Below are positions 6,624-52,841 of a DNA stretch of 64,000 bases, piece after piece. The position numbers and the translations under genes were made by a program. Position 1 is the first letter of the stretch, and each line of letters opens with the position of its first letter. The notes below the pieces were generated by a model, which saw only the letters and a list, made by a program, of their open reading frames with translations, did no database searches and had not been told where the DNA came from. Origin of the DNA: Verrucomicrobiota bacterium (GTDB taxonomy: Bacteria > Verrucomicrobiota > Kiritimatiellia > CAIQIC01 > JAGNIJ01); assembly GCA_022710725.1 (NCBI GenBank), contig JAKLGK010000005.1, positions 156,347 through 220,346 of the forward strand. The letters run 5' to 3'.

Positions 6624-6636
6624 CGGGGGTTTCACC

Positions 6637-12631: not shown

Positions 12632-12642
12632 TCCTGCGCCGG

Positions 12643-27282: not shown

Positions 27283-27302
27283 AGGCCGGGAAGGGAGTCG
27301 AG

Positions 27303-31083: not shown

Positions 31084-33681
31084 ATGATTCGTCAGCACCT
31101 CTATTTGCACGCCCTGTTTGGTAAAGCGCTTTACCCGTTTGTCGTTTTCATGGGGGTGCTTGCCGCGCGGGCGGAAGTTCCTTTTTCCCTCATCATCCTG
31201 CCCGATACGCAATACTACACCGATAGCACGACCAATCGTTCGGCGATGTTCTCGGCTCAAACGGACTGGATTCTGGCCAACCGGACGAACCTGAACATCC
31301 GTTTTGTCCTGCACGAGGGCGACATCACCGAACACACATACAGCTATCGCGGAACGAACACGCTGGAGTGGCAGCGCGCGAGCCAGTGCATGGCGCCGCT
31401 GGACGGGAAGGTTCCGTACTTGGTCACCTACGGCAATCACGATTTCTTCTACAACGCCGGAATCTTCTCGAGGAACACGGACCGCTTCAACGAGTACTTC
31501 CCGCTAAGCCGGTTCCAGGCGACAGCTTCTGTTGTAGACAGTTTCCCGGCGGGGCGGTCTGACAACATCGGTGCCGTGTTCACGGCGGGCGGGGTGGACT
31601 GGCTGGTCGTGTCCCTGGAGTGGGGGCCGGGCGACGCCACGCTGGCCTGGGCGGACCAGCTGCTCAACCGCTATCCCCGCCACCGGGCGATCGTGCTGAC
31701 GCACTCCTATCTCTACCTGGACGGCCTGTGGCAGGGAAGGCTGGCCAGTCACAATTCCGATCCGCACGAGGGCTATGGCCCCGTGAACAACGGTCTGGAG
31801 ATGTGGGATAAGTTCGTTCGGAAGCACTCCAATATCGCGTTCGTGTTCAATGGGCACGCGGCGACATCGCCCTGGGAAACAGGCGCCCGGCGCGTGGACC
31901 AGGGAGACTTCAGCAACACGGTGCACGCGGTGGTGGCCAATTACCAGATGATGACCAATGGCGGCGCAGGGTACCTTCGCATCCTGCAGTTCACGCCGGA
32001 CACCGGCCGCCTGAATGTCACCACGTACTCCCCGCACCTGGGGAATTATAAAACCGACACGAACAACCAGTTCGCCTGCACCAACCGGGCGCTGTTCGAT
32101 GCCTCGCCCCCCGGATCGCCGTCGGGCCTCCGGGTGGAGGCGGTGGATGGTTCGACGTGCCGGCTGACGTGGGAGCCCGCCGCGGACGGGGAGAGCGGCC
32201 TGCTGGGCTACGCTGTCTTCCGGGACACGCAGCAGGTGGCGTTCGTGCAGGGCGCGGAATGCACCGACTGGTCCGCGCCGCCGGACACGCTGTGCTCCTA
32301 CCGGGTGGTCGCCATCAACGGCGCGGGGTGCTGGTCCGAGGGGGCGGCTTCGGCGGTGGTGGTGACGCCGCGGGAGGTCCGGGCGCCCGCGGTCGACAAC
32401 GTATGGGCCGCGGCATCGAACGAGGTGCGTGTGTCCTTCGACAAGGCGGTGGACAGCCGCGACGCGATGGCTCCCACCAACTACAGTTTCGGGGAGGCCC
32501 TGGCCCTGGAGGGCGTGACCCTGGCCCCGGGCGCCCGCGAGGTGATCCTGACGACCGAGCCCATGGAGGACGGGTCCTGCTATCCCCTGCTCATCAAGGG
32601 GTGGGAATCTCATCATCCGGACGGCGACCGGTCGGCGGGGGAATGGCTGTTCGATCATTCCACCCCGGTGCTGCAGGAGGGCTTCGCGGACGGGGACCTG
32701 GCCGGCTGGGCCGCGATGGACGAGGGAACCCTCAACGCCCCGTCGCTCTGGTCCGTGCAATCCAACCGGGTCAAGCAGGCTTCCTTCATCGGCGGGCCTG
32801 CCTGGAACTCCCTGTTCAACCGGCAGGGCGCCTTCCTGCTGTGGACCGCGGAGGTCGCCGCGGCCTGGAGCGACTACGCCATGGAGGCGGATATCACGAC
32901 GGGGTACGGTGGTGGTATCGGCTTGGTCTTCCGATACCAGAATCCTTCCAACTACTACCGCTTCGAGATGGACCAGACAAACAGGTGCCGACGGTTATAT
33001 CGGCAGCGGAACGGGACCAACGAGATGCTGGCTTGGAACTGGCACGGTTACACGGTGAACAGCAATCAGCACATCCGGATCGAGGTGCTGGCGGATACAG
33101 TGCGGGTTTTTGTGAACGGGGCGGACGTGTTCGGCCGGACAATCGTGGATGCCTTGCCGCTGGCCTCGGGTACGGTCGGCCTGTGGACGTGGCGTTCGCG
33201 GCCGACCTGGTTCGACAACATCACCGTCAGGCCCATCCAGATCGCGGCGTCCACGGCGGAATACAACCGCTATATCCTGGAATACTGGGACGAGGCGGGC
33301 AACGGATGGCAGGGCCGGGGCGGCGGGAAACCCAGGCCCTCGCTGAACCCCCATGCCGACGCGGACGGGGACGGGATGACGAACTACAAGGAATACGTGT
33401 CCATGACGCATCCCATGAACCGCGACAGCGTGTTCCGGGTGAGCCTGGTCGCGACGAATCCCGGCCGCGTGAGCATTTCCTTCCCCTCGAGCACGAACCG
33501 CCTGTACCGGGTGTACGCCCGCCGGACCTCGACCGGGGGGACGTGGTGGCCGCTGCAGTCCGCCGCCTTCCGGGGGGATCCGGTTCAGACCATGCGGGAG
33601 GACTTGCTGCGGTCCTCGCCGCCCCCGCTCATGCCGGCGGACCGGCGGTATTATCGGGTGGATGTCCAGCGGCCCCGCTGA
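31084..33681 (+). CDS. Secreted calcineurin-like metallophosphoesterase with FN3 and LamG/DUF1080-like jelly-roll domains
   Basis: It has a signal peptide (…VVFMGVLAARAEVP) and the metallophosphoesterase motifs (HEGDITEH, GNHD). An FN3-like segment precedes a C-terminal DUF1080-like domain (IGLVFRYQNPSNYYRFEMD). Confidence 0.7.
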   Translation: MIRQHLYLHALFGKALYPFVVFMGVLAARAEVPFSLIILPDTQYYTDSTTNRSAMFSAQTDWILANRTNLNIRFVLHEGDITEHTYSYRGTNTLEWQRASQCMAPLDGKVPYLVTYGNHDFFYNAGIFSRNTDRFNEYFPLSRFQATASVVDSFPAGRSDNIGAVFTAGGVDWLVVSLEWGPGDATLAWADQLLNRYPRHRAIVLTHSYLYLDGLWQGRLASHNSDPHEGYGPVNNGLEMWDKFVRKHSNIAFVFNGHAATSPWETGARRVDQGDFSNTVHAVVANYQMMTNGGAGYLRILQFTPDTGRLNVTTYSPHLGNYKTDTNNQFACTNRALFDASPPGSPSGLRVEAVDGSTCRLTWEPAADGESGLLGYAVFRDTQQVAFVQGAECTDWSAPPDTLCSYRVVAINGAGCWSEGAASAVVVTPREVRAPAVDNVWAAASNEVRVSFDKAVDSRDAMAPTNYSFGEALALEGVTLAPGAREVILTTEPMEDGSCYPLLIKGWESHHPDGDRSAGEWLFDHSTPVLQEGFADGDLAGWAAMDEGTLNAPSLWSVQSNRVKQASFIGGPAWNSLFNRQGAFLLWTAEVAAAWSDYAMEADITTGYGGGIGLVFRYQNPSNYYRFEMDQTNRCRRLYRQRNGTNEMLAWNWHGYTVNSNQHIRIEVLADTVRVFVNGADVFGRTIVDALPLASGTVGLWTWRSRPTWFDNITVRPIQIAASTAEYNRYILEYWDEAGNGWQGRGGGKPRPSLNPHADADGDGMTNYKEYVSMTHPMNRDSVFRVSLVATNPGRVSISFPSSTNRLYRVYARRTSTGGTWWPLQSAAFRGDPVQTMREDLLRSSPPPLMPADRRYYRVDVQRPR

Positions 33682-37346: not shown

Positions 37347-38870
37347 ATGGCTTCAGATAAAATAGTCCGCGTCCCCATTGCCCTGCTGGGCATCGCGGGA
37401 TTCGTGATAGGGCTGGTGGCCTCGTACTGGGTGGCCGGCTTTTTCGGGTTCTCGCCCGCCCTCATGTGGTCGGTGCTGGTCATTCTGTTCGTGGTCGGCG
37501 TCTTCTTCCTGGAACACCCGAAACTGTACCTCTACTTCGTCTTCTTCTACCACGCCGTGTCGTTCAACGGCCTGTTCTTCGGGTGCCTGTATGTCCCCAT
37601 CCCGTTCATCGGCATCCTCGACGAGGCCCTGCTGGCGGTCCCCATGGCGATCATCGTGATGAAGGCGATCCATCGCCAACTGCCCCGCGGCGCGACGTTC
37701 TTTCCCCTCCTGTACCTGGGCCTGGCGCTGTTGAGCTGGAAGGTCAACCACGTCCCGACCCTCAACTTCATCCGCGTGACCCTTTCGTACGGCAAGTTCT
37801 ACATCTTCTGGTTCTATGCCCGCGCCATCGGGCCCTGGTCGCCGCGGGAAAAGAAGCTGTGGTTCATCATGCTCCTGGCCCTGGCGTTCCTTCAGCTCCC
37901 CTTCAATGTAGTCTGGCAGAAAGGCTTGTCGATCCGCCTCACGGCGGATGACAGCCGGGGATCGATCGGCAGCGCGCACATCGTGGGGTACATGTCCGTC
38001 ATCGCCCTCTTCCTGCTCGGGGGCTGGCTGTTCTCGCTGAAGCCGCCGGTCCCGCGGAAGCGTGTGGCGCTCGCGCTGTTCATGGCGCTGCTGATCGCGT
38101 ATGACCTCATTTTCCTGACCGATACGAAGCATGTGCTGCTGATGGTCCCCCTCGCGGCGGCGCCCATGTTCCTGTTCCCGCGCATCGGGATACGGAACCG
38201 GGTGCTGTTCGGGCTGGCTATGCTGGTCTTCCTTGTGGCGAGCTGGGTCTACCTGTCGTTTGCCACGAAGTCCTGGGAGAATCGCCCGGCCATGGTGATG
38301 CACTCTATGAAGTACTCGGGCAAGGGCGCCGTGTTCCGAACGATCACCCGCGACCTGGCCGGCGAGGTGCCCCTGCTGGGCCTGCTGGGCGCCGGCCCCG
38401 GCAATTTCTGCAGCACGGTGGGCACGTACAGCATGCGGCCGTTGGCCAACAAGTACGTGCTGCCCTACGTCCTGACCGCGTTCCGGAGCCGCGGGCAAGC
38501 CGCCGAAACCTCGGTGATCGGGAGCGCCATGAGCTCGCTCTACACGCTGTGGGGCGAGTTCGGGCCGATCTCCATGGCCTTCTACTTCTGGTTCTGGTTC
38601 GCCGCCATGCGCCATCTCTGGAGGCTCTGCCTCCAGGATCCCGGGTTCTCGTTCGAAACCGGGCAGCGGCTCGGCATCATCGGAGGCGTCATCACGGTCT
38701 TTCTCGTCGGGATGCTGATCGAAACCTTCAACTTGAGCATGCTGATGCTTCCGCTCTGGAGCCTGGTGGGTATCCATTGGGTGTCCGGGCCGGAGGCGCC
38801 CACGCAACGGAAGGAGGATGAACTGGCCCTGCAGGTCGGCTCGTCCTTCCGGATGCCGTTCCGGTTCTGA
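37347..38870 (+). CDS. O-antigen ligase/polymerase-like membrane protein (Wzy_C family)
   Basis: A polytopic membrane protein with one large periplasmic loop, but no diagnostic motif. Confidence 0.6.
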   Translation: MASDKIVRVPIALLGIAGFVIGLVASYWVAGFFGFSPALMWSVLVILFVVGVFFLEHPKLYLYFVFFYHAVSFNGLFFGCLYVPIPFIGILDEALLAVPMAIIVMKAIHRQLPRGATFFPLLYLGLALLSWKVNHVPTLNFIRVTLSYGKFYIFWFYARAIGPWSPREKKLWFIMLLALAFLQLPFNVVWQKGLSIRLTADDSRGSIGSAHIVGYMSVIALFLLGGWLFSLKPPVPRKRVALALFMALLIAYDLIFLTDTKHVLLMVPLAAAPMFLFPRIGIRNRVLFGLAMLVFLVASWVYLSFATKSWENRPAMVMHSMKYSGKGAVFRTITRDLAGEVPLLGLLGAGPGNFCSTVGTYSMRPLANKYVLPYVLTAFRSRGQAAETSVIGSAMSSLYTLWGEFGPISMAFYFWFWFAAMRHLWRLCLQDPGFSFETGQRLGIIGGVITVFLVGMLIETFNLSMLMLPLWSLVGIHWVSGPEAPTQRKEDELALQVGSSFRMPFRF

Positions 38871-38893: not shown

Positions 38894-39895
38894 TCACGGG
38901 GCCCGGCGCGGGGGCCGAAACAGCGGCCAGCCCCGGGCGCGGGCCACGCGCGCCAGCCCCAGCGGAAGCAGCAGGCCCGCCGCCACCCCGGCCACCTCGT
39001 GGGGCCAGAACAGCGAAACGTGCAGGCCCCGCTGGAGGACCACCCGCGTGCCGGCGGAGAAGATCACGTGCGCGCAATAAACCTCGAGCGAATAACGCCC
39101 CAGGCTGCTCCACCCGTTCAGGGAGGGCGCGGCGGCCAGCAGGGATGACAGCCCCAGGGTCCCCGCCACGCCCGCGAGCGTGGCGGCGGGGAGCAGCAGC
39201 GCGGAGCACGCCGCCCGGTGCGCGTGCAGGAAATAGAGCCCCGCGAATCCCGCGACGGCCAGCGCGATCGCCTGTCTCCGGGGCAGCGCTTCGAAGCAGC
39301 GCTCCGGGGCCAGCGCGCCGAGGGCCAGAAAAAGATAGTGCTGGCAGGCCAGCCGGACCGGGGCGCCGAACCAGTCGGGGCGCATCGCCGCCGCGCCGTC
39401 GAGGAGCAGCGCAACCGCCAGGCGTCCGAAGCGCCCGACGCGCATGCCGCGGAGCAGCAGGTCGAGGGCGTAGATCAGCATCAGCGCGTGGAGGAACCAG
39501 AACTGCATCCAGCCGCGCAGCAGCAGGCCCGGGACTTCCACCCAGGCCACGTGCCGGTTGCCGGCGCCGGTCAGGATCATCAGCGCGGCCTGCAGGAGCG
39601 TCCACACGACGTAGGGGTAGAGCAGCGTCCCCGGGAGACTCGCGGCCACGCCTTTCAGGCCCCGGCGCCGGATCGAGGCTTCCAGGAAGTGACCGGACAG
39701 CACGAAGAACACCGGCACCATGAACGTGTAGCACAGCGCCTCGAAGGCCGGCCAGAAGGCGGGGACGCCCGCAATCCCGGCCCTTCCGAGCCCCTGCTCG
39801 ACGTGGCAGATGACCACGAGCGCGATGGCGATCCCCTTGGCGTGATCGGCCTGAAGCAGCCGGGCTGCGCTCGTGGAGGGAGGTTCGGCTTTCAT
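38894..39895 (-). CDS. Acyltransferase family 3 membrane O-acyltransferase (OatA/OafA-like)
   Basis: The start (MKAEPP...) was derived by arithmetic from the ORF-track end. The protein is polytopic, and its N-terminal region has the family His (VICHVEQG). Confidence 0.7.
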   Translation of the reverse strand: MKAEPPSTSAARLLQADHAKGIAIALVVICHVEQGLGRAGIAGVPAFWPAFEALCYTFMVPVFFVLSGHFLEASIRRRGLKGVAASLPGTLLYPYVVWTLLQAALMILTGAGNRHVAWVEVPGLLLRGWMQFWFLHALMLIYALDLLLRGMRVGRFGRLAVALLLDGAAAMRPDWFGAPVRLACQHYLFLALGALAPERCFEALPRRQAIALAVAGFAGLYFLHAHRAACSALLLPAATLAGVAGTLGLSSLLAAAPSLNGWSSLGRYSLEVYCAHVIFSAGTRVVLQRGLHVSLFWPHEVAGVAAGLLLPLGLARVARARGWPLFRPPRRAP

Positions 39896-39897
39896 GG

Positions 39898-42759
39898 CTA
39901 GTCGGGCAGCGCGACGCGGACCCGGTACAGGCGCTGGGTGACGTCCTCCGGCGGCGGCTCGGTCTCGCTGCCGTCGTCCAGCCAGTTGGTCAGCCCGCCG
40001 CTCCCTGCGAAGGGGGCCGGGGATGCGACCAGCCATCCGTTGAAATTGGTCAGGTAGTCCGAATTGTAACGCACCTCGTAGAGCCGGCCGGTGTCGGCGA
40101 AGAAGGAAAGCAGCGGGCGGCGGTTGGTGTCCGAGCCGCTGGCGACCCGGAAGACGCTGTTGGAGTCGCCCGGGTCCGTGGCCGCGACGTATTCCTGCCA
40201 GTTCCCGGCCTTGTCGCCGTCGCCATCGGCCGCGGCGTCGTTGTTGGTAGGGTTCAGCGCGTGCGCCTGCTCGAAGTGGTTCGGCATGCCGTCGCTGTCC
40301 GGGTCGTTCGTGGCCGCGTAGACGTACAGCCCTCCGAAGTACTGCTGCTCCCAGGAGTCCGGCAGCGCGTCGCTGTCCGTGTCCAGCGTGGGCGAGCGCT
40401 GGATCGCGATCCAGGAGGCCGGCGACACGGCCCGGGTCCCGCCGCTGTCCCACGCCAGGGCCTTCACCGACACCGCGCCGACGCCGGCGTCGGCCGTGTC
40501 GAACGCCGACACCCACGGGGCGTTCGTCAGCACGGAGCAGGGCTTGTCCTCCACGTAGAAGACCACCTGTGTGACGACGCCGGGCGCGTTGGTGACCTCG
40601 GCCTGGAGAAACACATTGCTGCCCAGAACGAACGGCTCGCCGTTGGTCGGCGAAAGCAGCCGGGCCGCGAAGGCCGAGTTGCTGACCAGCACGGGCGTCA
40701 CGCTGTGCCCCTGGGCCTCGGGGCCGGTCCCGAGCCGGCCGGCGGCGCGGATCGTGTGCGGGCCGTTGGGCCAGGCCGTCGTGTCCCACGCCCACGAGGT
40801 GTCCAGCGGGGACCGTCCGCACCAGAAGAGCACGTTGCCGCGCGCCGTCAGGTCGCTTTCGTTGTCGTTGAAAAAGTCCGAGAACGAATCGGCCGGGTAC
40901 AGGCCCGAGCCCGGGATGGCGGGGACGATCGTGTAGGCCACGTGCAGGCGGATGCCCTCCGGCCCGGGGCGGCGCGCCTCGAGCGGGAAGCTGGACACCT
41001 CCTGGTAGGTGTGCGTGTTCGCCCAGGCTCCATTCGTGCCCTGCAGGACGGCGTGGCTGTTGATGGCCGCCACGAGCCGCGTGACGACCTGCTTGGGCGT
41101 CTCGTTCTGGGCGGCGATGATCCGGTTCGTGGCCGCGACCCCGTTCGTCAGCGTGATGACGCAGGTCACCGTGTCGCCCGTGTTGGCCTTCCCGTTGTAG
41201 GCCTGGAGCTGGACGAATTCCCGCGCGGCGTACGCGCTCTCGAGCAGGTTGGAGCCGAGCGCCTGCGCGAAGACCGTCAACTCGGCGGCCGCGCCCGTCT
41301 CCGTCCCCGCCGAGTACGTCACGCCCGTCCCGAAGTACCCGTAGTTGGTGTACACCAGTTCCAGCCGGTCGCCGCGGGCCGCGGCCCGCACGGCGAGGTT
41401 GCTCGCGTTCACCCGGCCGGCGAGGCTGGTGACGGCGCTGTACAGCGTGTCGCCGGCCGCGACCTGGTAGGCCACGGGCTGCCCGGAGATCGTCACCTGC
41501 AGCACGTTGCCCGGCCGCGGGGGGACGTTGGTGGGCGTCCCCGCGTACAGGTCGTCCACGAACACGTCCACCCGGGCGGCCGGCCGGCCCGCGGCGTTGG
41601 TCCGCGCCTGGATGTCCACGGCGACGGTCCCCGACACGACCTGGTTCGAGGCGAGGGACGCGACGGCGACCGCCGGCGGGTCGGCATAGGGCGCGGCGAG
41701 CGGGTCGCCGATGAAGAGGCCCTGGTAGGGGTTGGCGACGCTCATCCAGTAGCTCTCGCCCAGGCTGAACCCGCGCGCGTACCAGAAGAAAACAAGGGGA
41801 TCGGGGAATTTCTCGATGTAGGCGCAGGGCTCGTTCACGGCGCCGTAGCTGGCGGACGCGCCCTGCCGGATCCAGTTCCAGATCTTCCCCTGGTTGTACG
41901 GGTCGGTGGGGAACCGCGCGCCGAAGGACGTCATGTGGTCGGCCATGCAGCCCGGCAGGTACCGGTTCGTGGCGCCCCAGTAGTCGTTGATCTGCGACGA
42001 GCCCCACTGGAAGCCCAGCACGTTCGTCTCCTGGTTCAGGGGGCCGTACCCCGTGATCTCGTGGGCGGGGAAGCCCGACAGGAAACGCGCGTGAAAATCG
42101 AAGTTGTTGTTGAGCGGGTAGCGGACGTTGCGCTCCGCGTCGCTGCTCTCGACAAGATAGAAGCAACCCCCCGGCCTCGTCCCGTCGGACCGGACACTGA
42201 CGTCCACGTTGCTCTTCGCGATGGAGAGGCGGTCGCCGATCAGCATGAAGCTCAAGTAGTAATTCGTCCCCGCGTATTTGTCCGCGTGGCGGAACCCGCG
42301 CTCGGCCTTGTAGTAGCCGCTCGCCGTATTGGTGGGCATGCTGCAGGAAGCGACGATCTTGGGGGCGTTCTTGAACCCGTAGAAAAGGACGGCCGTGGCC
42401 CCCTCGTTATCGCTGACGCGCGTGGGTAGGTCCTGGCAGAGGACCAGGGTGTCGATCTGGTTGCTCAACCCGTACAGCCCGATGTGCTGCGAGATGCGGT
42501 CCACGATCGAGGTCTGGAAGGCGGTGTTGGTCATGTCGTGGAACCCCGCCGCCGCGGAGGCCGGCGGGACGGAGACGTGCAGCACGTTGCGTTCCGGGAT
42601 GCCCCGCAACTGCCGGTAGTACAGGCCGGTTTCCTGCGATTCGATGCTCTGGTCGTTGAGGATGACCAGGACGTTCTGGGGGCCGCCGCCGGCCCGGCCC
42701 GGGAGAGGGGACAGCAGGGCCGCCGCCGCGGCCAGCAAGGCTGAAACCCTGATCCTCAT
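39898..42759 (-). CDS. Large secreted protein A with a conserved N-terminal domain of unknown function (shared with 42828-45170), Ig-like domains and a Ca-binding-like Asp-rich C-terminus
   Basis: It begins with the signal peptide MRIRVSALLAAAAALLSPLPGRAGG. A domain of roughly 450 aa carries GGGPQNVLVILND...YYRQLRGIPERNV, LFYGFKNAP, FDFHARF and EPCAYIEKFPDPLVFFWYARGFSLGESYW...PYQGLFIGDPLAAPYA. The C-terminus has DTDSDALPD, NDPDSDGMPN and DGDGD repeats. Confidence 0.65.
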   Translation of the reverse strand: MRIRVSALLAAAAALLSPLPGRAGGGPQNVLVILNDQSIESQETGLYYRQLRGIPERNVLHVSVPPASAAAGFHDMTNTAFQTSIVDRISQHIGLYGLSNQIDTLVLCQDLPTRVSDNEGATAVLFYGFKNAPKIVASCSMPTNTASGYYKAERGFRHADKYAGTNYYLSFMLIGDRLSIAKSNVDVSVRSDGTRPGGCFYLVESSDAERNVRYPLNNNFDFHARFLSGFPAHEITGYGPLNQETNVLGFQWGSSQINDYWGATNRYLPGCMADHMTSFGARFPTDPYNQGKIWNWIRQGASASYGAVNEPCAYIEKFPDPLVFFWYARGFSLGESYWMSVANPYQGLFIGDPLAAPYADPPAVAVASLASNQVVSGTVAVDIQARTNAAGRPAARVDVFVDDLYAGTPTNVPPRPGNVLQVTISGQPVAYQVAAGDTLYSAVTSLAGRVNASNLAVRAAARGDRLELVYTNYGYFGTGVTYSAGTETGAAAELTVFAQALGSNLLESAYAAREFVQLQAYNGKANTGDTVTCVITLTNGVAATNRIIAAQNETPKQVVTRLVAAINSHAVLQGTNGAWANTHTYQEVSSFPLEARRPGPEGIRLHVAYTIVPAIPGSGLYPADSFSDFFNDNESDLTARGNVLFWCGRSPLDTSWAWDTTAWPNGPHTIRAAGRLGTGPEAQGHSVTPVLVSNSAFAARLLSPTNGEPFVLGSNVFLQAEVTNAPGVVTQVVFYVEDKPCSVLTNAPWVSAFDTADAGVGAVSVKALAWDSGGTRAVSPASWIAIQRSPTLDTDSDALPDSWEQQYFGGLYVYAATNDPDSDGMPNHFEQAHALNPTNNDAAADGDGDKAGNWQEYVAATDPGDSNSVFRVASGSDTNRRPLLSFFADTGRLYEVRYNSDYLTNFNGWLVASPAPFAGSGGLTNWLDDGSETEPPPEDVTQRLYRVRVALPD

Positions 42760-42827
42760 GATCGCACCTTTTATAAACATACCCCGGGGAAACCCGCGAG
42801 GGAAGCCCCGAAGGAGGCGGCGCGGGT

Positions 42828-45170
42828 TCAGCGGGGCACGCTGATCCAGACGGGGTCGGACAGCGTCTGGCGGCCGTCCGCGTCCGCGACCCGGACCTGC
42901 ACGCTCACCCTGCCGCCGCGGTAGGGGGCGGTGTCCACCGTGCCGTGAAAAGGCGCTTTCCCCGCGCGATCCGCGATCTTTCCCTCGACGAGGAAGTCCA
43001 CCGCGCCGACAGGGAAGTCGGCGGGCTCGCACTCCACGCCGAGCGAAAGCCGGGCGCCGGCCCGGACAACCTGGCCGGACTCCACTCCGGTCAGCCGACA
43101 GCGCCGGTCCGTGTTGCGCACGACGACGGGGACAAACGCGTGGCCCTGGGTCTGCACCGCGGTGCCGTCGCGGGCCACAAGGCGCAGCACGTGGGGCCCG
43201 TCCGGGATGCCGGAAGTGTCCCATGGAAACTCCGCGGCCAGGGTCTCGCGGCCGCAATGGAACAGCAACATGCCCCGCGAACTCATCAGGTCCATGTTGT
43301 CCGAGAGCCGCCCCTCGTAGGCGACCGGCGGAGCCAGCCCGGCGCCCGGGGTCTTCGGCAGGATGGCATAGCGGAGAAGGATGGCCACGCCCGGCGGGCC
43401 GGCCGTCCTCGACTCGAGGGCGAAGTCCGCGCGATCGGCTTTGGCCTTCAGGTCCGCGATCCGTATTCCGTCCGGGCCGGCCAGGACGGGATGACTGTCG
43501 AGGGCCGCCTTCAGGCGTTTCGCCACGTCGAGCGCCGCCTCGCCCTCGGCGGCCTCCACGCGCGCCGTCGCGATCAGGCCGTTGCCCAGCGTCACCCGGC
43601 ACTCAACGGCGTCCCCGGCGGCGGCCGCGCCCTGGAGCATGACATATTTCCTCGCCGCGTAGGTTCCGTCGAGCAGGGCCGGGGTCAGGTTGCGCGCGCC
43701 GAACCCGGGCGGCGGCCCGAGCCCCTGTTCGACGCGCGCGCCGTAGGGCGTGGTGGAGCCGCGTTTCCCGATGCGCCCGTCCATCAGCATCAGCCGGTCG
43801 CCGAAGGGGACGGCGTTAAGCATGGGGTTTTTCCGGGCCTCCCGCGCCAGGCCGCGGACGGCCGCCGGGAGGTCGTCGGATTCACCGAGGATATAGCTGT
43901 ATTCCTGGCCGTCGAACTCCAGGTAGACTTCATTCCAGGCTTGCGGCCGTATGTTGGTCACGGTGCCGACCCGGAGGTCGTCCAGGTAGAAGTCCAGGGC
44001 CGCGCAGGGACACTCGGGGGTGCCCGCGGCACTGACCCGCACGGTGACCGTTCCCGACACGGTCTGCCCGGCCGCCGGCGCGGCGACGGTGACGCGCGGG
44101 GGTCGGGCATACGGCGCGGCGAGCGGATCGCCCACGAAGAGGCCCTGGTAGGGGTGCGCGACGCCCATCCAGTAGCTCTCGGCCAGGTTGAAGCCCCGCG
44201 CGTACCAGAACAGAACCATCGGAGACGGGAATTTTTCGAGGAAGTTGCACGGCTCGCTGACCGTCCCGTAACTGGCCGTGGCGCCGGCGCCGATCCACTG
44301 GAGCATCGAGCCCTGGCCCATGGGCGGCACCGGCAGGAGGCCGCTGAAGGACGTCAACTGGTCGGCGATCGCGCCCGGCAGGTACTGGTTCGCGGTCCAG
44401 AAGGTCTCGGGATGGTTGGGGCCCCCCGTGAGGTAGCCGAGGATATCCGTCAGGCCCGTGAGCGTGTTCTCCTCCGAGAACACGCGTCGCGGGAACCCCG
44501 GCATGAAGCGCGCGTGGAAATCCAGCTCGTCGAAGAGCCGGTACCGGATGTTCCGATCCGGGTCGCCCGGCGGCTTGACGAGGTAGAACGTGCCGGTGGG
44601 CGCGGTGCCGTCGCAGGCCGCGCCGCGATCCACGAGGGCCCGGGCGTCCCGCGGCGCGGGGCCGGTCAGCATCATGGCCAGGTAGTGGGGGTTTTCCCGT
44701 CCCGCCAGGTCGTGGGTGAAGGCGCGCTCGGCGTTGAAATAGAAGCTCAACGTTGAGGGCGACAACTGGCAGGGCGGGGCCGGCGGGGCGTTCTTGAAGC
44801 CGTAGAACAGGGCGGCGGTGATGCTCTCGCTGTCGTTGATCCGGGTCGGTGTGTCCATGCAGAGCGCGAGGAAGTCGATCTGGTCGGACAGTTTCTCGTC
44901 CCGGATATGCGCCAGGATCGGGTCCCGGATGGATTTCTCGAAGATATCGAGGAAGGTGTTATGCAGCGGGGCGGACAGGTTCAGGTGGCAGACATTCCGC
45001 TCGGGGATGCCGCGCGCTTCCCGGTAGTAGCGGCCCAGTTCCTGCGAGTCCGGATCGCCGTCGTTGACCACGATCAGCACGTTCTGCGGCCCGCCGCCGG
45101 AGCGCGCCACCGCGGGCAGGAGCGCCAGCAGAAGGGCCAGGCCGCGCCGGATTCGCCCAAACCTTTTCAT
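42828..45170 (-). CDS. Large secreted protein B, tandem paralog of protein A
   Basis: It shares the same N-terminal motifs (GGGPQNVLIVVNDGDPDSQELGRYYREARGIPERNV, LFYGFKNAP, EPCNFLEKFPSPMVLFWYARGFNLAESYW, GDPLAAPYA) and has a different C-terminal half. Confidence 0.65.
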   Translation of the reverse strand: MKRFGRIRRGLALLLALLPAVARSGGGPQNVLIVVNDGDPDSQELGRYYREARGIPERNVCHLNLSAPLHNTFLDIFEKSIRDPILAHIRDEKLSDQIDFLALCMDTPTRINDSESITAALFYGFKNAPPAPPCQLSPSTLSFYFNAERAFTHDLAGRENPHYLAMMLTGPAPRDARALVDRGAACDGTAPTGTFYLVKPPGDPDRNIRYRLFDELDFHARFMPGFPRRVFSEENTLTGLTDILGYLTGGPNHPETFWTANQYLPGAIADQLTSFSGLLPVPPMGQGSMLQWIGAGATASYGTVSEPCNFLEKFPSPMVLFWYARGFNLAESYWMGVAHPYQGLFVGDPLAAPYARPPRVTVAAPAAGQTVSGTVTVRVSAAGTPECPCAALDFYLDDLRVGTVTNIRPQAWNEVYLEFDGQEYSYILGESDDLPAAVRGLAREARKNPMLNAVPFGDRLMLMDGRIGKRGSTTPYGARVEQGLGPPPGFGARNLTPALLDGTYAARKYVMLQGAAAAGDAVECRVTLGNGLIATARVEAAEGEAALDVAKRLKAALDSHPVLAGPDGIRIADLKAKADRADFALESRTAGPPGVAILLRYAILPKTPGAGLAPPVAYEGRLSDNMDLMSSRGMLLFHCGRETLAAEFPWDTSGIPDGPHVLRLVARDGTAVQTQGHAFVPVVVRNTDRRCRLTGVESGQVVRAGARLSLGVECEPADFPVGAVDFLVEGKIADRAGKAPFHGTVDTAPYRGGRVSVQVRVADADGRQTLSDPVWISVPR

Positions 45171-45273: not shown

Positions 45274-46398
45274 TCAAACGCGGGCCGCCAGGGAGCGATA
45301 CACTTCTTCCGTGGCGTCCGTGATGCGGTCCCAGTCGTAGGTGCGGGCCACGTAGGCCGCCGCCTGCGCGGCGCGGGCGCGCGCGGCTTCGGGCGCCGAT
45401 AGAAACGGCGGGAGCGCAGCCCGCAGGGCGTCGGCCGAGCCGGCCGGGAAAAGAGCGGCGAGTGCGGAGCCCGGCGCGCCGTCCGGCCGGACCACCTCGA
45501 GGTTCTCGGGGATGTCGCTGCAGAGCACCGGGCAGCCGAGGGCCATCGCCTCCAGCAGCACCAGCGGCATGCCCTCCAGCGTGGAGGGGAACACCAGGGC
45601 GCGCGCGTTGCTGTAGGCCTCTTCCTTTTCCTCCCCGTACAGCGGCCCGGCGAAGACGATGCGCGGGTCGCCTTCCGCCAGGGCGCGGAGCCGGGCAAGG
45701 TAATCCTCGCTGTGGCTGGCGCCGCCCACGATCAGCAGCTTCAGGTCGCCCGGCACGGCCCGGAACGCCTCGATCAGGAGGTGGCCGCCTTTTTCGGGCA
45801 CGAGCCGGCCGAGGTAGAGCAGGTACTCGTCCGGCCGCACCCCGAACCGGCGCAAGCGGTCGAGCGGCCGCCGGACGCCCGGCGTGACACCGTTGGGAAT
45901 AGGCACGGTCTCGCGGCCGTAGCGCTCGCGGTAGAAGCGCTGCAATTCGCGGGACACGACGATCGTGCGGTGCGGGAACGCCCCGGCGGTCCAGGCCCCG
46001 AGCCGGAGAAAGAGCCGCGCGCCCGCACCCCATTTTTCGCGCTTCCAGTCCAGGCCGTGCACCGTGACGACCGTCCGACGCCCCGCGAGACGCGGCAGGA
46101 ATGCCAGCATGGAAGGCCCCGTAGCGTGGATGTGCACGAGGTCATAACCGGCCAGCGCCCGGCACGCGGCCAGGAACGTGTGCGTGATCGCCTCGAGGTG
46201 CTTCGTATAAACGGCGGGCAGGTTGACCAGGCGGACGCCCTCGAACTCCTTGGCGCAGGCGGAATTATACCTGGCGCGGCAGAACACCGTGACGGCGTGG
46301 CCGCGGGCCGCCAGGCGCCGGGCGATTTCCTCGACGGCCTTCTCCACCCCGCCCGAGCCCTGTCCGATGGCCCGGAGGCCCATCATGGCGATGCGCAT
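45274..46398 (-). CDS. Glycosyltransferase family 4
   Basis: It has the GT-B fold and the STLEGMPLVLLEAMALGCPVL motif. Confidence 0.8.
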   Translation of the reverse strand: MRIAMMGLRAIGQGSGGVEKAVEEIARRLAARGHAVTVFCRARYNSACAKEFEGVRLVNLPAVYTKHLEAITHTFLAACRALAGYDLVHIHATGPSMLAFLPRLAGRRTVVTVHGLDWKREKWGAGARLFLRLGAWTAGAFPHRTIVVSRELQRFYRERYGRETVPIPNGVTPGVRRPLDRLRRFGVRPDEYLLYLGRLVPEKGGHLLIEAFRAVPGDLKLLIVGGASHSEDYLARLRALAEGDPRIVFAGPLYGEEKEEAYSNARALVFPSTLEGMPLVLLEAMALGCPVLCSDIPENLEVVRPDGAPGSALAALFPAGSADALRAALPPFLSAPEAARARAAQAAAYVARTYDWDRITDATEEVYRSLAARV

Positions 46399-47963: not shown

Positions 47964-48956
47964 TTGTTCCCGGCGATGTCCTACACTCGAACATCCTCGC
48001 AGTTATGGAGCGAACGCTGGCGCCTGGCGGCCCTGCCGCCCGACGCGCTGCGGCGGGCGGGGCTCGCTTCCATCCTGGTCGGCCTGCTCTACCTGCTGTT
48101 CCATCTCCAGGGCAACACCACGGACATCCGGATGTTCGGCCGCTCGGCCATTCTGTGGATGGTCAGCTACTGGCACGACGACCTGTCGTACAGCTGGCTG
48201 ATCCCGTTCATCTCGGCCGGCGTGATCTGGTGCCAGCGCAAGCAGATCGCGGCCGCCCCGCAGCGGACGAACCGGTGGGGGCTCGCGCTGGTCGTGCTGG
48301 CCCTGCTGGTGCACTGGATGGGCGCCAAGGCCCAGCAGGTGCGCGTGTCCCTCTTCGCCCTGGTCCTGCTGCTCTGGGGCGCGCCGCTCTACCTGTACGG
48401 CTGGCAGGTGATGAAGCACCTCGTGTTTCCCGTGGCGTTCCTGTTCTTCTGCATTCCCCTGAACTTCCTGGACGAGCTGACGGCGCCCTTGAGCCTTCTG
48501 GCGACGACCGCCTCCACGCACCTCCTGAACGGCCTGGGCATCGCCGTGCAGCAGGTGGGCACGCGGATGACGGTCAACGACGGGCCGGACATGGTGCGCT
48601 GGACGCTGGAGGTGGCGGCGCCGTGCAGCGGGCTCCGCTCCATCATGGCGCTGACCATCCTGTCCGCCGTCTATGCCTACTTCACGCAGAAGACCCTGGT
48701 CCGGAAGTGGATCCTTTTCCTGGCGTCCGTTCCGCTGGCCATCGTCGGCAACGTCATGCGGATCATCACCATCAGCCTCATGGCCCAGGCCTTCGGGCAG
48801 GACGTCGCCGTCGGCCTCTACCACGACTATTCCGGCTTCATTTTCTTCCCCGTCTCGCTCGGCCTGCTGATCGGCCTGGGCGGCCTGCTGAACCACCACC
48901 CGCGGGAGATCTGGCTCCGATGGAAAAGCGAACTCTTAAGCCCTATTTCGTCCTGA
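47964..48956 (+). CDS. Exosortase (EpsH/XrtA-type)
   Basis: It is polytopic, and has the signature Cys motif APCSGLRS with a conserved downstream Arg (VMRI). Confidence 0.8.
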   Translation: MFPAMSYTRTSSQLWSERWRLAALPPDALRRAGLASILVGLLYLLFHLQGNTTDIRMFGRSAILWMVSYWHDDLSYSWLIPFISAGVIWCQRKQIAAAPQRTNRWGLALVVLALLVHWMGAKAQQVRVSLFALVLLLWGAPLYLYGWQVMKHLVFPVAFLFFCIPLNFLDELTAPLSLLATTASTHLLNGLGIAVQQVGTRMTVNDGPDMVRWTLEVAAPCSGLRSIMALTILSAVYAYFTQKTLVRKWILFLASVPLAIVGNVMRIITISLMAQAFGQDVAVGLYHDYSGFIFFPVSLGLLIGLGGLLNHHPREIWLRWKSELLSPISS

Positions 48957-49681
48957 TCGCCCTCTTCGTGGCGATGTCGGTGGCGCTGGCGCTGACGGTG
49001 GACGTCAATATCACCGACGAGGCCGGCATCAGCGTGGCGTTGCCCGACCAAGTCGGGGCGTGGCGCGGCGAGGAAATCCGCTACTGCCAGGGCCCGACCT
49101 GCGAGAAGGAGTTTGTGCGGAGCGCCCTCGAGAATCCCGATGTCTGCCCCCTGTGCGGCAGCCCGCTGGCCCCGATGAGCCTCGGCGAAAAGACCCTGTT
49201 GCCTCCGGACACCATCGTCCTGAAGAAGAAGTACACCCACCCGATGGGCCAGGCCGTGTTCGTGTCCATCGTGTTGAGCGGCAAGGAGCGGGCCAGCATC
49301 CATCGGCCCGAGGTCTGCCTGCGCGGGCAGGGCAACAAGCAGCTGGGGAGCCGCGTGCTGGAGGTGCCGATCGCGAACCGGGCGGCCCTCCGGGTCATGG
49401 TCATCGACATGCTCCGCCAGTACATGACCGCGGACCAGCGGGTGGTCGAGTATCCCTCGTACTACGCGTACTGGTTCGTCGGGAAGGGGCGGGAGACCCC
49501 GCACCATTGGCAGCGGATGATGTGGATGGCCACCGACCGCATCTTGCACAGCGTATCCCACCGGTGGGCGTACATCGCGGTGACCGGGATCCGGACGCCC
49601 GACTCCGATGAATACCGGGAGCAGATCCGGAACTTCGTGAGCCAGCTCTACCCCTTGATGGCCATCGAGCCGCACGGATGA
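48920..49681 (+). CDS. EpsI-family exosortase-associated protein
   Basis: A signal/TM N-terminus, its position immediately after the exosortase, and the conserved core (KTLLPPDT...K.Y....G..V.VSIV.SG.ERASIHRPE.C) support the call. It overlaps the exosortase 3' end by about 37 nt. Confidence 0.7.
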   Translation: MEKRTLKPYFVLIALFVAMSVALALTVDVNITDEAGISVALPDQVGAWRGEEIRYCQGPTCEKEFVRSALENPDVCPLCGSPLAPMSLGEKTLLPPDTIVLKKKYTHPMGQAVFVSIVLSGKERASIHRPEVCLRGQGNKQLGSRVLEVPIANRAALRVMVIDMLRQYMTADQRVVEYPSYYAYWFVGKGRETPHHWQRMMWMATDRILHSVSHRWAYIAVTGIRTPDSDEYREQIRNFVSQLYPLMAIEPHG

Positions 49682-49802: not shown

Positions 49803-52800
49803 GTGACATCATCGGAATGGAACCAGCAGCAGGGCGGCGCGGCCCCCGGCGCGCCGGCCGGCGCCGCGCCGGAACAGAACCGCCCGGATTTCCTCGACCA
49901 GCAGGAGGGCCGCTTCTTCCGGCGGGCGGACTGGAGCGCATTCTGGACCGTGCTCCTGGTGACGCTGGGCGTCTACGTGTACACCCTGGCCCCCACGGTG
50001 ACGCTGGAGGACTCCGGCGAGCTGGCCGTCGCTTCCGATTACCTGGGCGTGCCCCACCCGCCGGGCTATCCCATCTGGGCGCTCCTGACCTGGTTCTTCC
50101 AGTGGATCTTCCACTGGGTCACGTACTACGGCTTCCCGAATCCCGCCTGGAGCGTCGGCCTCTTCTCCGCCGCGTCCGGCGCGCTGGCCTGCGCCCTGCT
50201 GGCCATGCTCGTCAGCCGGTCCGGCAGCGACATCATCCGCACCTGGAAGCGCGCCACCGAGGTCCTCGGCTACCGCACGGAAACCGTGCTGTGCTGGGCG
50301 GCGGGCGTGTCCAGCGGGCTGCTGCTGGCCTTCAGCCCGGTCATGTGGTCGCAGTCCGTCATCGTCGAGGTGTACAGCCTCAACGCCCTCTTCCAGACGC
50401 TCCTCCTGCTGCTGATGTACCGCTGGATGTGCCGGCCGAAGGAAGACCACACGCTGTACATCACCGCGTTCATCTTCGGGCTGGGCCTGACCAACCACCA
50501 AACCCTGCTCTTCATGGTGCTGGGCCTGATGGCCGCCCTCTGGTTCCGCGACCGGGCCCTGTTCCGCGACTGCCTGGCCGGCCTGTTCCTGTGCATCTCC
50601 GCGTACCTCTTCTTCGCCGCGTACGGCATGAACCCCGGCCCCAACGCGCCCGCCGAGGTCCTGAAGCAGAAGCACCTGACGCTGACCTTCGCCCTCCTCT
50701 TCCTGTTCGCGCCCGTCGGCCTGTTCCTCATCCAGCGGCAGCTGATGACGGAATGGAAGCGCGTGCTCATCCTCGTCGCCCTCGTCGGCGCCGGCCTCTC
50801 GTTCTACGCCTACATGCCCTTCGCCTCGGAGCAGAACCCGCCCATGAACTGGGGCTACCCGCGGACCTGGGAGGGCTTCAAGCACGCGATCAGCCGCGGC
50901 CAGTACGAACGCATCACGCCGACGGATATCTTCAGCAGGAAGTTCCTGGAGCAGATCCTGTCCTACATCACGGACCTGCGCGAGCAGTTCTCCTCGCCGA
51001 TCTCCCTGCTGGCCGTGCTGCCCTTCGTGTTCTTCATCAAGCTCGACCGCCGCGCCCGCACGTGGCTGATCACCGCCCTGATCTCCTTCTTCTCCGTCAG
51101 CATCATCCTCGTCATCTTCCAGAACCCGGCGCTGGACATCCAGACGCTCTTCATCGGCCGCGTGCAGTTCATCCAGTCCCACGCGGTGTACGCCATCTGG
51201 CTCGGGTACGGGCTCATCTTTGTCCTCGCCTGGCTGGAGACCCTCCTCGGCGGCATGGGCATCGCGCGGTTCCTCGGCCCGGTGTTCGCCGTGCTCCTGC
51301 CGCTCGTGCTCGTCTACCAGAACGGCTACGACGACAACCAGCTCCTGATCCTCGGCGGCGCCGAGCAGAACGGGCACGACTTCGGCTGGCAGTTCGGCCA
51401 CTGGCAGCTGCGCGGCGTCAACGGCATCCGCGACGACCTTCACTTCAAGCGCTCGGACGCGGAATTCGAGGAGATCTGGAAGAGCTACCCGACCCCCGAC
51501 TACCCGCCCGAGATGGGCACCAACGCGATCTTCTTCGGCGGCACGGATCCCGGCCGCTTCGTGCCGACCTACATGATCTACTCCGCCAAGTGCCGCAGCG
51601 ACGTCTACCTCATCACCCAGAACGCGCTCGCCGACAATACGTACATGAACGTCATGCGCGACCTCTACGGCGACACGATCTGGATCCCGTCCCAGCAGGA
51701 CAGCAACCTCGCCTTCCAGCGCTACGTGGACGACGTCCAGGCCGGCCGCGTCCCCGCCGGCGCCGCCGTGACCGTCGAGAACGGACGCGTCAGCGTCCAG
51801 GGCGTCGCCGGCGTGATGATGATCAACGGCATCCTCGCCCAAATGATCTTCGAGCAGAACAAGTACAAGCACGAGTTCTACGTCGAGGAAAGCTACGTCA
51901 TCCCCTGGATGTACCCCTACCTGACGCCGCACGGCCTGATCATGAAGATCAACGCCGAGCCGATGAAGGAGCTGCCGCCCGACCTCGTGCAGAAGGACCA
52001 CGATTTCTGGACCTGGTACTGCGACTACCTGCTCAAGAACCCGAAATTCGACCGCGACGTCGTCGCGCGCAAGACCTTCTCCAAGCTCCGCAGCGCCATC
52101 GCCGGCCTGTACGCCTTCCGCGGCGCCCAGGACACCCCGCGCCGCGAGGAGATGTACCGGGAGGCCGAGTACGCCTTCCGCCAGGCCATCGACCTCTACG
52201 ACTTGAGCCCCGAGGCCAACTACCGGCTGGCCGACATCCTGATGCAGCAGCGCCGCTTCGCCGAGGCGCGGGAGCTGATCGAGAACTTCCTCAAGAAGGA
52301 CAAGGGCAACGACAAGCTGCAGGATTTCCTCAACCAGATCTCCAGCACGGACAAGGACGACGCCCGGCGCAACGAGCTCGAGGCCTCCTTCAACCAGGGG
52401 CGCGGCGACCTGCAATCCGCTCTCGAACTGGCGCAGTTGTACCGCCGCCTCAACCTCGACCAGCAGTTCGTCGGCCTGACCATGCAGTTGCTCAACGACG
52501 GGAGCGTGCCCCCCGCCTTCTACCTCGAGATCGCCCGGATCTTCGCCGAGGCGCGCCGCGCGGACCTCCTGGCCGTCGCCCTCCAGCGCTACGTCGCGCG
52601 CGATCCGTCCCAGCCGGCCGTGTGGATGGACCTCGCCGCCGTCCAGCTGGCCCTGCAGCAGACGGACCCGTGCCTCGAGTCCATCCGGCAGGCCATCACC
52701 GTCGGCGGCGACGCCGCCCGCGACGCCATCCGGAAAGACCAGCGGTTCAACGGGCTGCGCGCGAACGCGCAGTTCCAGCAGTTGGTCCCGCCGGTGCAGA

Positions 52801-52841
52801 CCCGGCTCCCGGCCGCGCTACCCAACCTGCCGGTTTTCTGA
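49803..52841 (+). CDS. DUF2723 (PMT-like GT-C fold) membrane protein with C-terminal TPR repeats
   Basis: The N-terminal roughly 550 aa is polytopic and PMT/DUF2723-like (EDSGELA...YLGVPHPPGYP). The C-terminal roughly 300 aa consists of TPR-like helices. Confidence 0.6.
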   Translation: MTSSEWNQQQGGAAPGAPAGAAPEQNRPDFLDQQEGRFFRRADWSAFWTVLLVTLGVYVYTLAPTVTLEDSGELAVASDYLGVPHPPGYPIWALLTWFFQWIFHWVTYYGFPNPAWSVGLFSAASGALACALLAMLVSRSGSDIIRTWKRATEVLGYRTETVLCWAAGVSSGLLLAFSPVMWSQSVIVEVYSLNALFQTLLLLLMYRWMCRPKEDHTLYITAFIFGLGLTNHQTLLFMVLGLMAALWFRDRALFRDCLAGLFLCISAYLFFAAYGMNPGPNAPAEVLKQKHLTLTFALLFLFAPVGLFLIQRQLMTEWKRVLILVALVGAGLSFYAYMPFASEQNPPMNWGYPRTWEGFKHAISRGQYERITPTDIFSRKFLEQILSYITDLREQFSSPISLLAVLPFVFFIKLDRRARTWLITALISFFSVSIILVIFQNPALDIQTLFIGRVQFIQSHAVYAIWLGYGLIFVLAWLETLLGGMGIARFLGPVFAVLLPLVLVYQNGYDDNQLLILGGAEQNGHDFGWQFGHWQLRGVNGIRDDLHFKRSDAEFEEIWKSYPTPDYPPEMGTNAIFFGGTDPGRFVPTYMIYSAKCRSDVYLITQNALADNTYMNVMRDLYGDTIWIPSQQDSNLAFQRYVDDVQAGRVPAGAAVTVENGRVSVQGVAGVMMINGILAQMIFEQNKYKHEFYVEESYVIPWMYPYLTPHGLIMKINAEPMKELPPDLVQKDHDFWTWYCDYLLKNPKFDRDVVARKTFSKLRSAIAGLYAFRGAQDTPRREEMYREAEYAFRQAIDLYDLSPEANYRLADILMQQRRFAEARELIENFLKKDKGNDKLQDFLNQISSTDKDDARRNELEASFNQGRGDLQSALELAQLYRRLNLDQQFVGLTMQLLNDGSVPPAFYLEIARIFAEARRADLLAVALQRYVARDPSQPAVWMDLAAVQLALQQTDPCLESIRQAITVGGDAARDAIRKDQRFNGLRANAQFQQLVPPVQTRLPAALPNLPVF

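Follow-up and report, generated by a model that had tools for sequence, protein, structure and literature searches.

Tandem TIGR03790 proteins with a predicted gingipain/separase-like domain beside an exosortase operon in a Kiritimatiellia bacterium

Here we describe two adjacent genes, A and B, in a 64,000-nucleotide stretch of a Verrucomicrobiota genome assembly of the class Kiritimatiellia (GCA_022710725.1, contig JAKLGK010000005.1, positions 156,347 to 220,346 of the forward strand; hereafter the window). Both lie on the minus strand, gene A at 42828..45170 (780 amino acids, aa) and gene B, its paralogue with an additional C-terminal tail, at 39898..42759 (953 aa), next to an exosortase operon and among genes for exopolysaccharide (EPS) synthesis. 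Their shared N-terminal domain (N-domain) belongs to TIGR03790, a large family that is catalogued but has no known function, and is predicted to adopt a protease fold of the gingipain/separase type. Its most conserved residues include a Thr-Ser pair, two glutamates, a lysine and an arginine. The explanation that we favour, and that we hold with middling confidence, is that A and B are extracytoplasmic enzymes of the exosortase/EPS pathway, in which a gingipain-like scaffold with an invariant polar centre acts on matrix or PEP-CTERM proteins at a peptide-type bond.

Genes A and B belong to the TIGR03790 family

The N-domains of A and B matched the TIGR03790 model with 159.2 and 126.1 bits, respectively, against a cut-off of 67, and covered model positions 1-310 and 1-311 of 316. 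An earlier note on this DNA, made from the sequence alone, had been unable to assign the domain to a family and had proposed a check of the TIGRFAM families linked to PEP-CTERM. That check gives a direct match, and the NCBI and JGI entries that are 100% identical to A and B (for B, NCBI entry P0121) already carry the name 'TIGR03790 family protein', so that both genes are ordinary members of a catalogued family and the finding for this window is an annotation refinement. The note was right in calling the function of the domain obscure. No Pfam model covers the shared N-domain, Big_7 alone being recognised in A and B. Comparison of 64 members with Pfam at E-values up to 10 returned only Big_7, BiPBP_C and noise, with no peptidase family, and a PDB sequence search with a profile of the 64 N-domains gave no relevant match at E-values up to 10. 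A literature search found no paper mentioning TIGR03790, CHP03790 or IPR022265. Of three papers that touch on PEP-CTERM, exosortase and cysteine protease together, two appear to deal with myxosortases.

A word-indexed search produced 2,676 family matches, and an exhaustive profile search 7,079 cluster representatives (50% identity) at E ≤ 1e-3, of which 4,216 were at E ≤ 1e-10, with no bridge to any characterised family among the best 150 matches listed. The family is spread over Verrucomicrobiota, Kiritimatiellia, beta- and gammaproteobacteria, picocyanobacteria, Acidobacteria and Planctomycetes. A typical member has 330-580 aa, whereas A and B come from a lineage of long forms (780-960 aa) with extra immunoglobulin (Ig)-like modules, hosted by Kiritimatiellia and related Verrucomicrobiota metagenome-assembled genomes (MAGs); the A-type/B-type tandem of this lineage was seen in only one of 80 other loci. 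N-terminal fusion partners of relatives, ten of which were checked, are Ig, cadherin, He_PIG or fn3 modules, plus one CBM60. In the TIGRFAMs description, TIGR03790 is reported to be confined to exosortase-bearing genomes, in keeping with the exosortase about 3 kb from A.

Paralogy and domain architecture of A and B

From the open reading frames (ORFs), protein A starts with MKRFGRI... at 45170 and protein B with MRIRVSALL... at 42759, and the public gene calls on an identical contig (Kiritimatiellia MAG GCA_035913195.1) have the same lengths of 780 and 953 aa. Sec-type signal peptides were read at both N-termini, with a basic n-region, a Leu/Ala h-region and cleavage between AVA and RS in A and between GRA and GG in B. 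The signal peptide of A, as read from the sequence, covers aa 1-23 (MKRFGRIRRGLALLLALLPAVA, followed by RS; 45102..45170, minus strand), with the family consensus AGGGP starting just behind it; in the full-length model of B, residues 1-23 form a helix and coil of low confidence. We infer that both A and B are exported.

The TIGR03790 domain of A (aa 24-357; 44100..45101, minus strand) is supported by the NCBIfam match, the AlphaFold model, Foldseek and column statistics, and its key residues are C134, R206, R209, Q271 (His in relatives), T273-S274, E306, C308, K313 and E331. In B the domain occupies aa 24-361 (41677..42690, minus strand; NCBIfam match and model), with C139, R210, H275, T277-S278, E310, C312, K317 and E335 as key residues. 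The two proteins are paralogues well beyond this domain. They aligned in blastp with 576 bits (E = 0.0), a similarity far above chance, and their homology is collinear over all 780 aa of A, with 43% identity over 772 aa, rising to 51% in residues 24-357 and falling to 38% in residues 358-780.

The C-terminal region of A (aa 358-780; 42831..44099, minus strand) comprises a Big_7 Ig domain and further beta-sandwich and alpha+beta modules, and is collinear with B residues 362-788. Big_7 (PF17957, gathering threshold 24.1 bits) matched A with 34.8 bits at aa 358-406, and B with 46.7 bits over two stretches, of which aa 700-766 matched best. According to the secondary structure of the model, the middle region of B (aa 362-790; 40390..41676, minus strand) is a string of Ig-like beta-sandwiches with two small alpha+beta modules. 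The extra tail of B, of about 165 aa, carries three thrombospondin type 3 (TSP3)-like, Asp-rich repeats of the calcium-binding type (aa 793-856; 40192..40383, minus strand) and then a terminal beta-sandwich (aa 870-953; 39901..40152, minus strand; strands at 872-950 in the model). The motif DxDxDxxxDxxE was located by regular expression at residues 793, 819 and 845, in the tandem arrangement of TSP3-type repeats. The TSP3-type model NF047639 gave a weak match to B (E = 2e-4), and Pfam TSP3_bac is annotated on the homologues P0123 and P0165, B itself falling under the Pfam reporting threshold. The full-length model of B has a pLDDT of 89.5, with residues 827-849 as a low-confidence linker. Foldseek with this model returned generic tandem Ig, FN3 and macroglobulin-domain arrays only (C3, A2M, CD109) and was uninformative on function. 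Among related loci, the C-terminal half adjoins the N-domain in 41 of 80 (tblastn).

These results bear on several statements of the earlier note. Its two neighbouring minus-strand genes with signal peptides agree with the ORFs, the public gene calls and the N-terminal reading; the conserved blocks that it quoted are all present in the A-B pairwise alignment, and the Asp-rich thrombospondin-type repeats that it saw in one copy correspond to the three motifs and the weak TSP3-type match of B. The description of the C-terminal halves as diverged was overstated, given collinear homology across 780 aa and 38% identity in 358-780. Moreover, the conserved unit is not a domain of roughly 450 aa but one of about 330 aa (residues ~24-357) followed by a separate Big_7 Ig domain, and the proteins are large rather than giant.

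Predicted fold of the TIGR03790 domain

Clan CD cysteine peptidases have the caspase-haemoglobinase fold, a helix-flanked six-stranded sheet of strand order 2-1-3-4-5-6. Their catalytic His and Cys sit where two successive strands, beta3 and beta4, reach their C-terminal ends. Residues 24-360 of A were modelled with AlphaFold2 from an alignment with 64 homologues. The model reached high confidence (pLDDT 93, pTM 0.92) and consists of an N-terminal subdomain of three or four parallel strands and a larger C-terminal alpha/beta/alpha subdomain. When this model was compared with the PDB by Foldseek, all high-probability matches were clan CD cysteine peptidases. The top match was the separase protease domain 5fby (E = 1.8e-6), and the best-covering one was gingipain K (Kgp; 6i9a, 4rbm), with E of about 3e-5 and a TM-score of 0.49 over about 410 columns. 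Human separase followed at E of about 1e-4 to 7e-4, CHAT/Craspase entries were weaker (about 4e-3 and above, at lower probability), and PorU (6za2) was marginal (E = 0.11, probability 0.12); generic periplasmic-binding-protein folds came later in the list, with probabilities below 0.2. Kgp is built of a four-stranded N-terminal subdomain, a six-stranded C-terminal subdomain and then an Ig-superfamily domain (PMC6426963), so that the N-subdomain, C-subdomain and Big_7 domain found here would follow the same three-part layout. The shared domain is thus predicted, from the model, to adopt a gingipain/separase-like protease fold.

The earlier note had named a confident match to a well-characterised family with conserved catalytic residues as the result that would overturn its view. 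What was found is a fold match to peptidases whose catalytic residues are not kept, as described below.

Residue conservation and cysteine pairs

Column statistics were obtained from 431 N-domains of several phyla aligned to the family profile, and are given in A numbering. S274, E306, G302 and G326 are 100% conserved; K313, R206, T273, P307, S42 and E331 are at least 99% conserved, and N36 is 98% conserved. Cys308, the Cys of the 'EPC' block, is conserved in 90%. His271, at the end of strand 263-271, is present in 74% and otherwise replaced by Ser, Asn, Thr or Gln. The earlier note had taken the invariant Cys/His-containing blocks to be catalytic, and this mostly fails across the family: the His of the FDFHARF block is not conserved and the EPC Cys is lost only together with Cys134, the truly invariant set being instead T273-S274, E306, K313, R206 and E331. 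As the column of His219 (FDFHARF) is variable or gapped, this residue was rejected as a catalytic His, and His271 is the sole candidate for a clan CD His. In A itself, codon 271 (44358-44360) encodes Gln, a lineage-specific substitution at precisely this position, which is His in all other A-type orthologues and in all but one of the B-type proteins examined (P0128, Leu).

One reading of the fold would make A and B canonical clan CD cysteine endopeptidases, with His275 and Cys312 of B as the dyad and Gln271 and Cys308 as their equivalents in A, so that B would be active and A a weakened or inactive partner. All fold neighbours do belong to clan CD. In addition, the His ends its strand, and the Cys stands 37 residues further on in the loop after the following strand, a spacing within the range of gingipains and legumains; His and Cys occur together in 304 of the 431 relatives, and the Cys is lost far more often where the His is absent (29 of 113) than where it is present (14 of 318). 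Four observations speak against this dyad. The Cys lies five residues past the strand end and not directly at it. Every clan CD family has a conserved Gly next to its catalytic His (PMC4357240), whereas the local sequence here is A-D-H/Q-L-T-S, in which the His is flanked by Asp and Leu and the nearest conserved Gly is six residues downstream. Cys308 covaries nearly perfectly with Cys134, as the partner of a disulfide would in a secreted protein. Finally, clades with Ser, Asn or Thr in place of the His, or lacking both His and Cys, retain S274, E306, K313 and R206. A canonical His-Cys dyad in TIGR03790 is doubtful, and we regard it as an unlikely account of A and B.

The covariation of the two cysteines is pronounced: among the 431 relatives both Cys134 and Cys308 are present in 384-388, neither is present in 42, and a single one occurs in 1-5, Cys134 being lost across the family whenever Cys308 is. 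Because near-perfect covariation within a secreted domain is the signature of a disulfide, the EPC Cys is most likely structural rather than a nucleophile, forming a putative Cys134-Cys308 bridge that would staple the loop of E306. A second pair, Cys275 and Cys283 (TSCGGxxPDPC), occurs in about a quarter of the family (both in 101 sequences, neither in 324, only one in 6) and probably forms a subfamily-specific disulfide beside the invariant T273-S274. The mutual-information partners of His271 were also considered and set aside, as they merely trace a Verrucomicrobial subfamily signature and indicate no specific contact.

Whole clades that lack the His, or both the His and the Cys pair, keep all the invariant polar residues, and for this reason the conserved chemistry most likely resides in T273-S274, E306, K313, R206 and E331. 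The same residues bear on the view that A and B are non-catalytic surface or matrix adhesins or scaffolds, with a protease-like domain that would bind as a pseudoenzyme, while attachment to the matrix would fall to the Ig stalk and the TSP3 repeats. This view draws on the long Ig-like stalks, on the TSP3-like repeats of B and its terminal beta-sandwich, which is shared with another secreted protein of the locus, and on the lack of conservation of the classical dyad. Against it, the invariance of S274, E306, K313, R206 and E331 over 431 sequences from several phyla is typical of catalysis and not of binding, and many TIGR03790 relatives are a bare domain of 330-420 aa with no stalk. We consider it very improbable; both it and the canonical Cys-His peptidase are less likely than the enzymes with a polar centre that we favour.

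Gene neighbourhood in the window

A and B are the two middle genes of a minus-strand run of four. The run opens with a GT4 glycosyltransferase (45274..46398, minus strand; NCBIfam and Pfam GT4) and closes with an Acyl_transf_3 membrane acyltransferase (38894..39895, minus strand; PF01757 on the public gene call), and the gaps in the order GT4-A-B-Acyl_transf_3 are 103, 68 and 2 nucleotides. Divergent from it is a plus-strand run, also of four genes: an EPS priming polyprenyl glycosylphosphotransferase (TIGR03025; 46498..47907, plus strand; 412.6 bits against a cut-off of 295.55), the exosortase (TIGR02602; 47964..48956, plus strand; 162.6 bits against a cut-off of 105.55; also PF09721), which is XrtA-like and falls under the XrtA cut-off, an EpsI-family exosortase-associated protein (48920..49681, plus strand; PF11984, with TIGR02914 at E = 5.7e-9, below its cut-off) and, directly after EpsI, a 1,012-aa protein with TMEM260_N (DUF2723, GT-C-like) and TPR regions (49803-52841, plus strand), which is conserved in the related locus L083 (1-1124). 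The exosortase lies 2.8 kb from A. The exosortase, GT4 and acyltransferase-3 neighbours named in the earlier note are real, by profile matches and public gene calls, and so are EpsI and the priming transferase.

The tail of B has a counterpart in the window. Its last TSP3 motif and beta-sandwich (39901-40290) are common to the C-terminus of a Metallophos protein (31084-33681, plus strand), with 37% identity over 119 aa in blastp and the strand motifs SVFRV / RLYxVR / YRVxV, and through this shared tail secreted proteins of the locus may be anchored or sorted in a common way. A and B were also considered as PEP-CTERM substrates (TIGR02595) and rejected, since they end in ...VWISVPR and ...YRVRVALPD, respectively, without the C-terminal tail of such substrates, which consists of a Pro-Glu-Pro motif, a hydrophobic helix and basic residues.

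Conservation of the pair in related loci

The tandem of an A-type and a B-type gene recurs in related Kiritimatiellia MAGs and is kept in three other loci. In L001 the A-type protein is 66% identical to A and the B-type protein 56% identical to B, and the pair stands among EPS genes. In L083 the values are 60% and 56%, and the pair lies by GT4 and MBOAT genes and a divergent operon of priming transferase, exosortase and EpsI; in L084 they are 47% and 49%, by GT4 and Metallophos genes and the same divergent operon as in L083. Because the tandem is conserved in these three loci, the A/B duplication is old and both copies have been maintained.

The neighbourhood survey covered 80 more distant loci. 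Directly downstream of the TIGR03790 gene, a secreted subtilisin-like S8 protease gene was found in 15 of them, all Verrucomicrobial (L008, L009, L011-L013, L017-L019, L021, L024, L026, L027, L032, L038 and L039), and in the TIGR03790 copies of all 15, position 271 is Ser, Asn or Thr and not His. In eight loci (L037, L040, L042, L043, L063, L067, L069 and L074), a TIGR03790 gene of about 1,000 aa is preceded on its own strand by one PEP-CTERM gene of about 290 aa or by two paralogous ones, directly adjacent (at -1 and -2) in seven of these loci and as clustered paralogues at -3 and -4 in L069. The one upstream PEP-CTERM protein that was scanned matches TIGR02595. The TIGR03790 copies of these eight loci all have neither His271 nor the Cys pair. 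Polysaccharide export and chain-length genes stand near some relatives, and many relatives lie amid housekeeping genes. Exosortase adjacency as a rule for the whole family was rejected, the survey having returned an exosortase within 10 kb in none of the 80 loci by tblastn and in one (L077, of Methylophilaceae) by phmmer.

This context is where a carbohydrate-directed role has to be weighed. From the position of the genes, the earlier note had drawn an extracellular role in glycan processing or in the matrix, which may hold but gains no backing from structural similarity to carbohydrate-active enzymes. A and B could be carbohydrate-active enzymes (an esterase, lyase or hydrolase) that trim or modify the exopolysaccharide of the locus, with the invariant Glu, Glu, Arg, Lys and Ser working on an acidic glycan. 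Their operon includes GT4 and Acyl_transf_3 genes and sits in a large EPS locus with Wzx-like, GT4, heparinase II/III-like and phosphonate genes, the same embedding recurs in L001, L083 and L084, and some relatives stand close to the polysaccharide export and chain-length genes just mentioned; the CBM60 fusion of one relative, and the presence of two invariant glutamates together with invariant basic residues, fit as well. Against this, no carbohydrate-active enzyme is found among the structural neighbours in Foldseek or signalled by Pfam or NCBIfam, many relatives stand amid housekeeping and not EPS genes, and proteins, namely PEP-CTERM proteins and the S8 protease, make up the conserved neighbours elsewhere. 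Glycan-directed activity is a serious rival, to which we give a modest chance of being correct.

Other features of the glycan locus

Positions 0 to 53 kb of the window form one large glycan locus. A heparinase II/III-like protein, a sulfatase-family protein and a Wzx-like flippase (22760-24508, 24623-26143 and 12634-14088, all plus strand) belong to one plus-strand run. The locus also has a phosphoenolpyruvate (PEP) mutase fused to a cytidylyltransferase-like domain and, close to it, an Fe-alcohol dehydrogenase (27285-28604 and 29733-30872, both plus strand), which suggests that the polysaccharide of the locus carries a phosphonate decoration. Between the acyltransferase and a LamG/Kelch protein lies a gene for a 507-aa polytopic membrane protein (37347-38870, plus strand) with no Pfam or NCBIfam match, possibly, by its position, a Wzy or O-antigen-ligase-like polymerase. 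Ig-like (IPT) domains are the target of O-mannosylation by the eukaryotic TMEM260. Proteins A and B contain many Ig-like domains, and the TMEM260_N protein is encoded nearby. In L083, two radical SAM genes (one of them SPASM) and a GT4 gene (4498-7745), absent from the window, stand between the exosortase operon and the A/B pair.

Proposed role of A and B

In the explanation that we favour, A and B would be exported by the Sec pathway and would display the catalytic domain on a stalk of Ig-like modules, to which B would add the TSP3 segment of calcium-binding type and the terminal sandwich. The active centre would be formed by T273-S274, E306, K313, R206 and E331, carried by loops along the C-terminal edge of the sheet in the second subdomain, the place of the active site in clan CD enzymes. 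The mechanism would be a non-thiol one, as the EPC Cys would be half of the Cys134-Cys308 disulfide and would leave no free nucleophile. The pair would be co-expressed with the GT4 glycosyltransferase and the membrane acyltransferase, facing the operon of priming transferase, exosortase and EpsI, and because of this operon context A and B most likely process extracytoplasmic products of the exosortase/EPS matrix. The reaction would take place at a peptide-type bond, by hydrolysis or transfer, with matrix or PEP-CTERM proteins as substrates, and would not be cleavage of a glycan; we favour a peptide-type substrate since peptidases are the only specific relatives in fold and since proteins are what the conserved neighbouring genes of other loci encode.

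Several results weigh against this explanation. The fold matches have modest TM-scores (0.39-0.49) and are accompanied by no sequence-level link to peptidases in the Pfam and PDB profile searches of the 64 members described above. The disulfide is read from covariation only. The near-absence of exosortase within 10 kb outside this lineage goes with a heterogeneous local context. A regular-expression scan of all ORFs of the window found no PEP-CTERM tail in its 64 kb, while the same scan was positive in nine of the 80 related loci. Finally, the immediate operon partners here are glycan enzymes, equally consistent with a glycan substrate.

TIGR03790 is a very large family with invariant residues of the kind seen in enzymes and no assigned function. 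The TIGR03790 name of both genes in public databases was already known. What appears to be new with respect to the literature is the resemblance of the fold to proteases, the EPC Cys as a probable disulfide partner and not a nucleophile, the Thr-Ser/Glu/Lys/Arg set kept invariant across the family and the conserved A/B pair by the exosortase. Together, the protease-like fold, the putatively structural Cys and the invariant constellation turn a 'conserved hypothetical' into a testable enzyme candidate with residues to mutate, and the Kiritimatiellia A/B tandem beside an exosortase is a natural genetic handle. Little is established about how the PEP-CTERM/exosortase system works biochemically, although the system is widespread in environmental bacteria that form biofilms or flocs.

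Comparison with known systems

Among the fold relatives, gingipains K and R (MEROPS C25; 4rbm, 6i9a, 1cvr) are likewise secreted and have conserved residues at the C-terminal edge of the sheet. They share no detectable sequence similarity with A and B, which have neither the C-terminal domain of the type IX secretion system (T9SS) nor a prodomain, have no Gly beside the candidate His, and carry a candidate Cys that is probably disulfide-bonded; the invariant residues of A and B are Ser, Thr, Glu, Lys and Arg and not His and Cys. Separase (C50) and CHAT/Craspase have the caspase-haemoglobinase core that the N-domain is predicted to share, but are cytoplasmic regulators with intact His/Cys dyads and an unrelated context, with TM-scores of only 0.28-0.39.

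A further parallel is conceptual. PorU, the T9SS sortase (C25-like), and the GPI8 transamidase (C13) belong to clan CD, and they take off a C-terminal sorting signal and link a glycolipid to the protein. TIGR03790 would similarly be an extracytoplasmic protein of clan CD fold tied to the sorting of proteins with a C-terminal signal, here by the PEP-CTERM/exosortase system. TIGR03790 proteins might then be PorU/GPI8-like partner enzymes of exosortase, with Ser/Glu/Lys replacing Cys-His, which trim PEP-CTERM proteins or transfer them onto exopolysaccharide after exosortase cleavage, the Kiritimatiellia A and B forming a two-subunit machine. An exosortase partner of this kind with non-thiol chemistry would be important if true; as it stands, we think it improbable. 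The PorU fold match is not significant, and the relatives adjacent to PEP-CTERM genes are precisely those without the His and the Cys. A difference also lies in the sorting enzyme: in the PEP-CTERM system it is exosortase itself that is the presumed transpeptidase.

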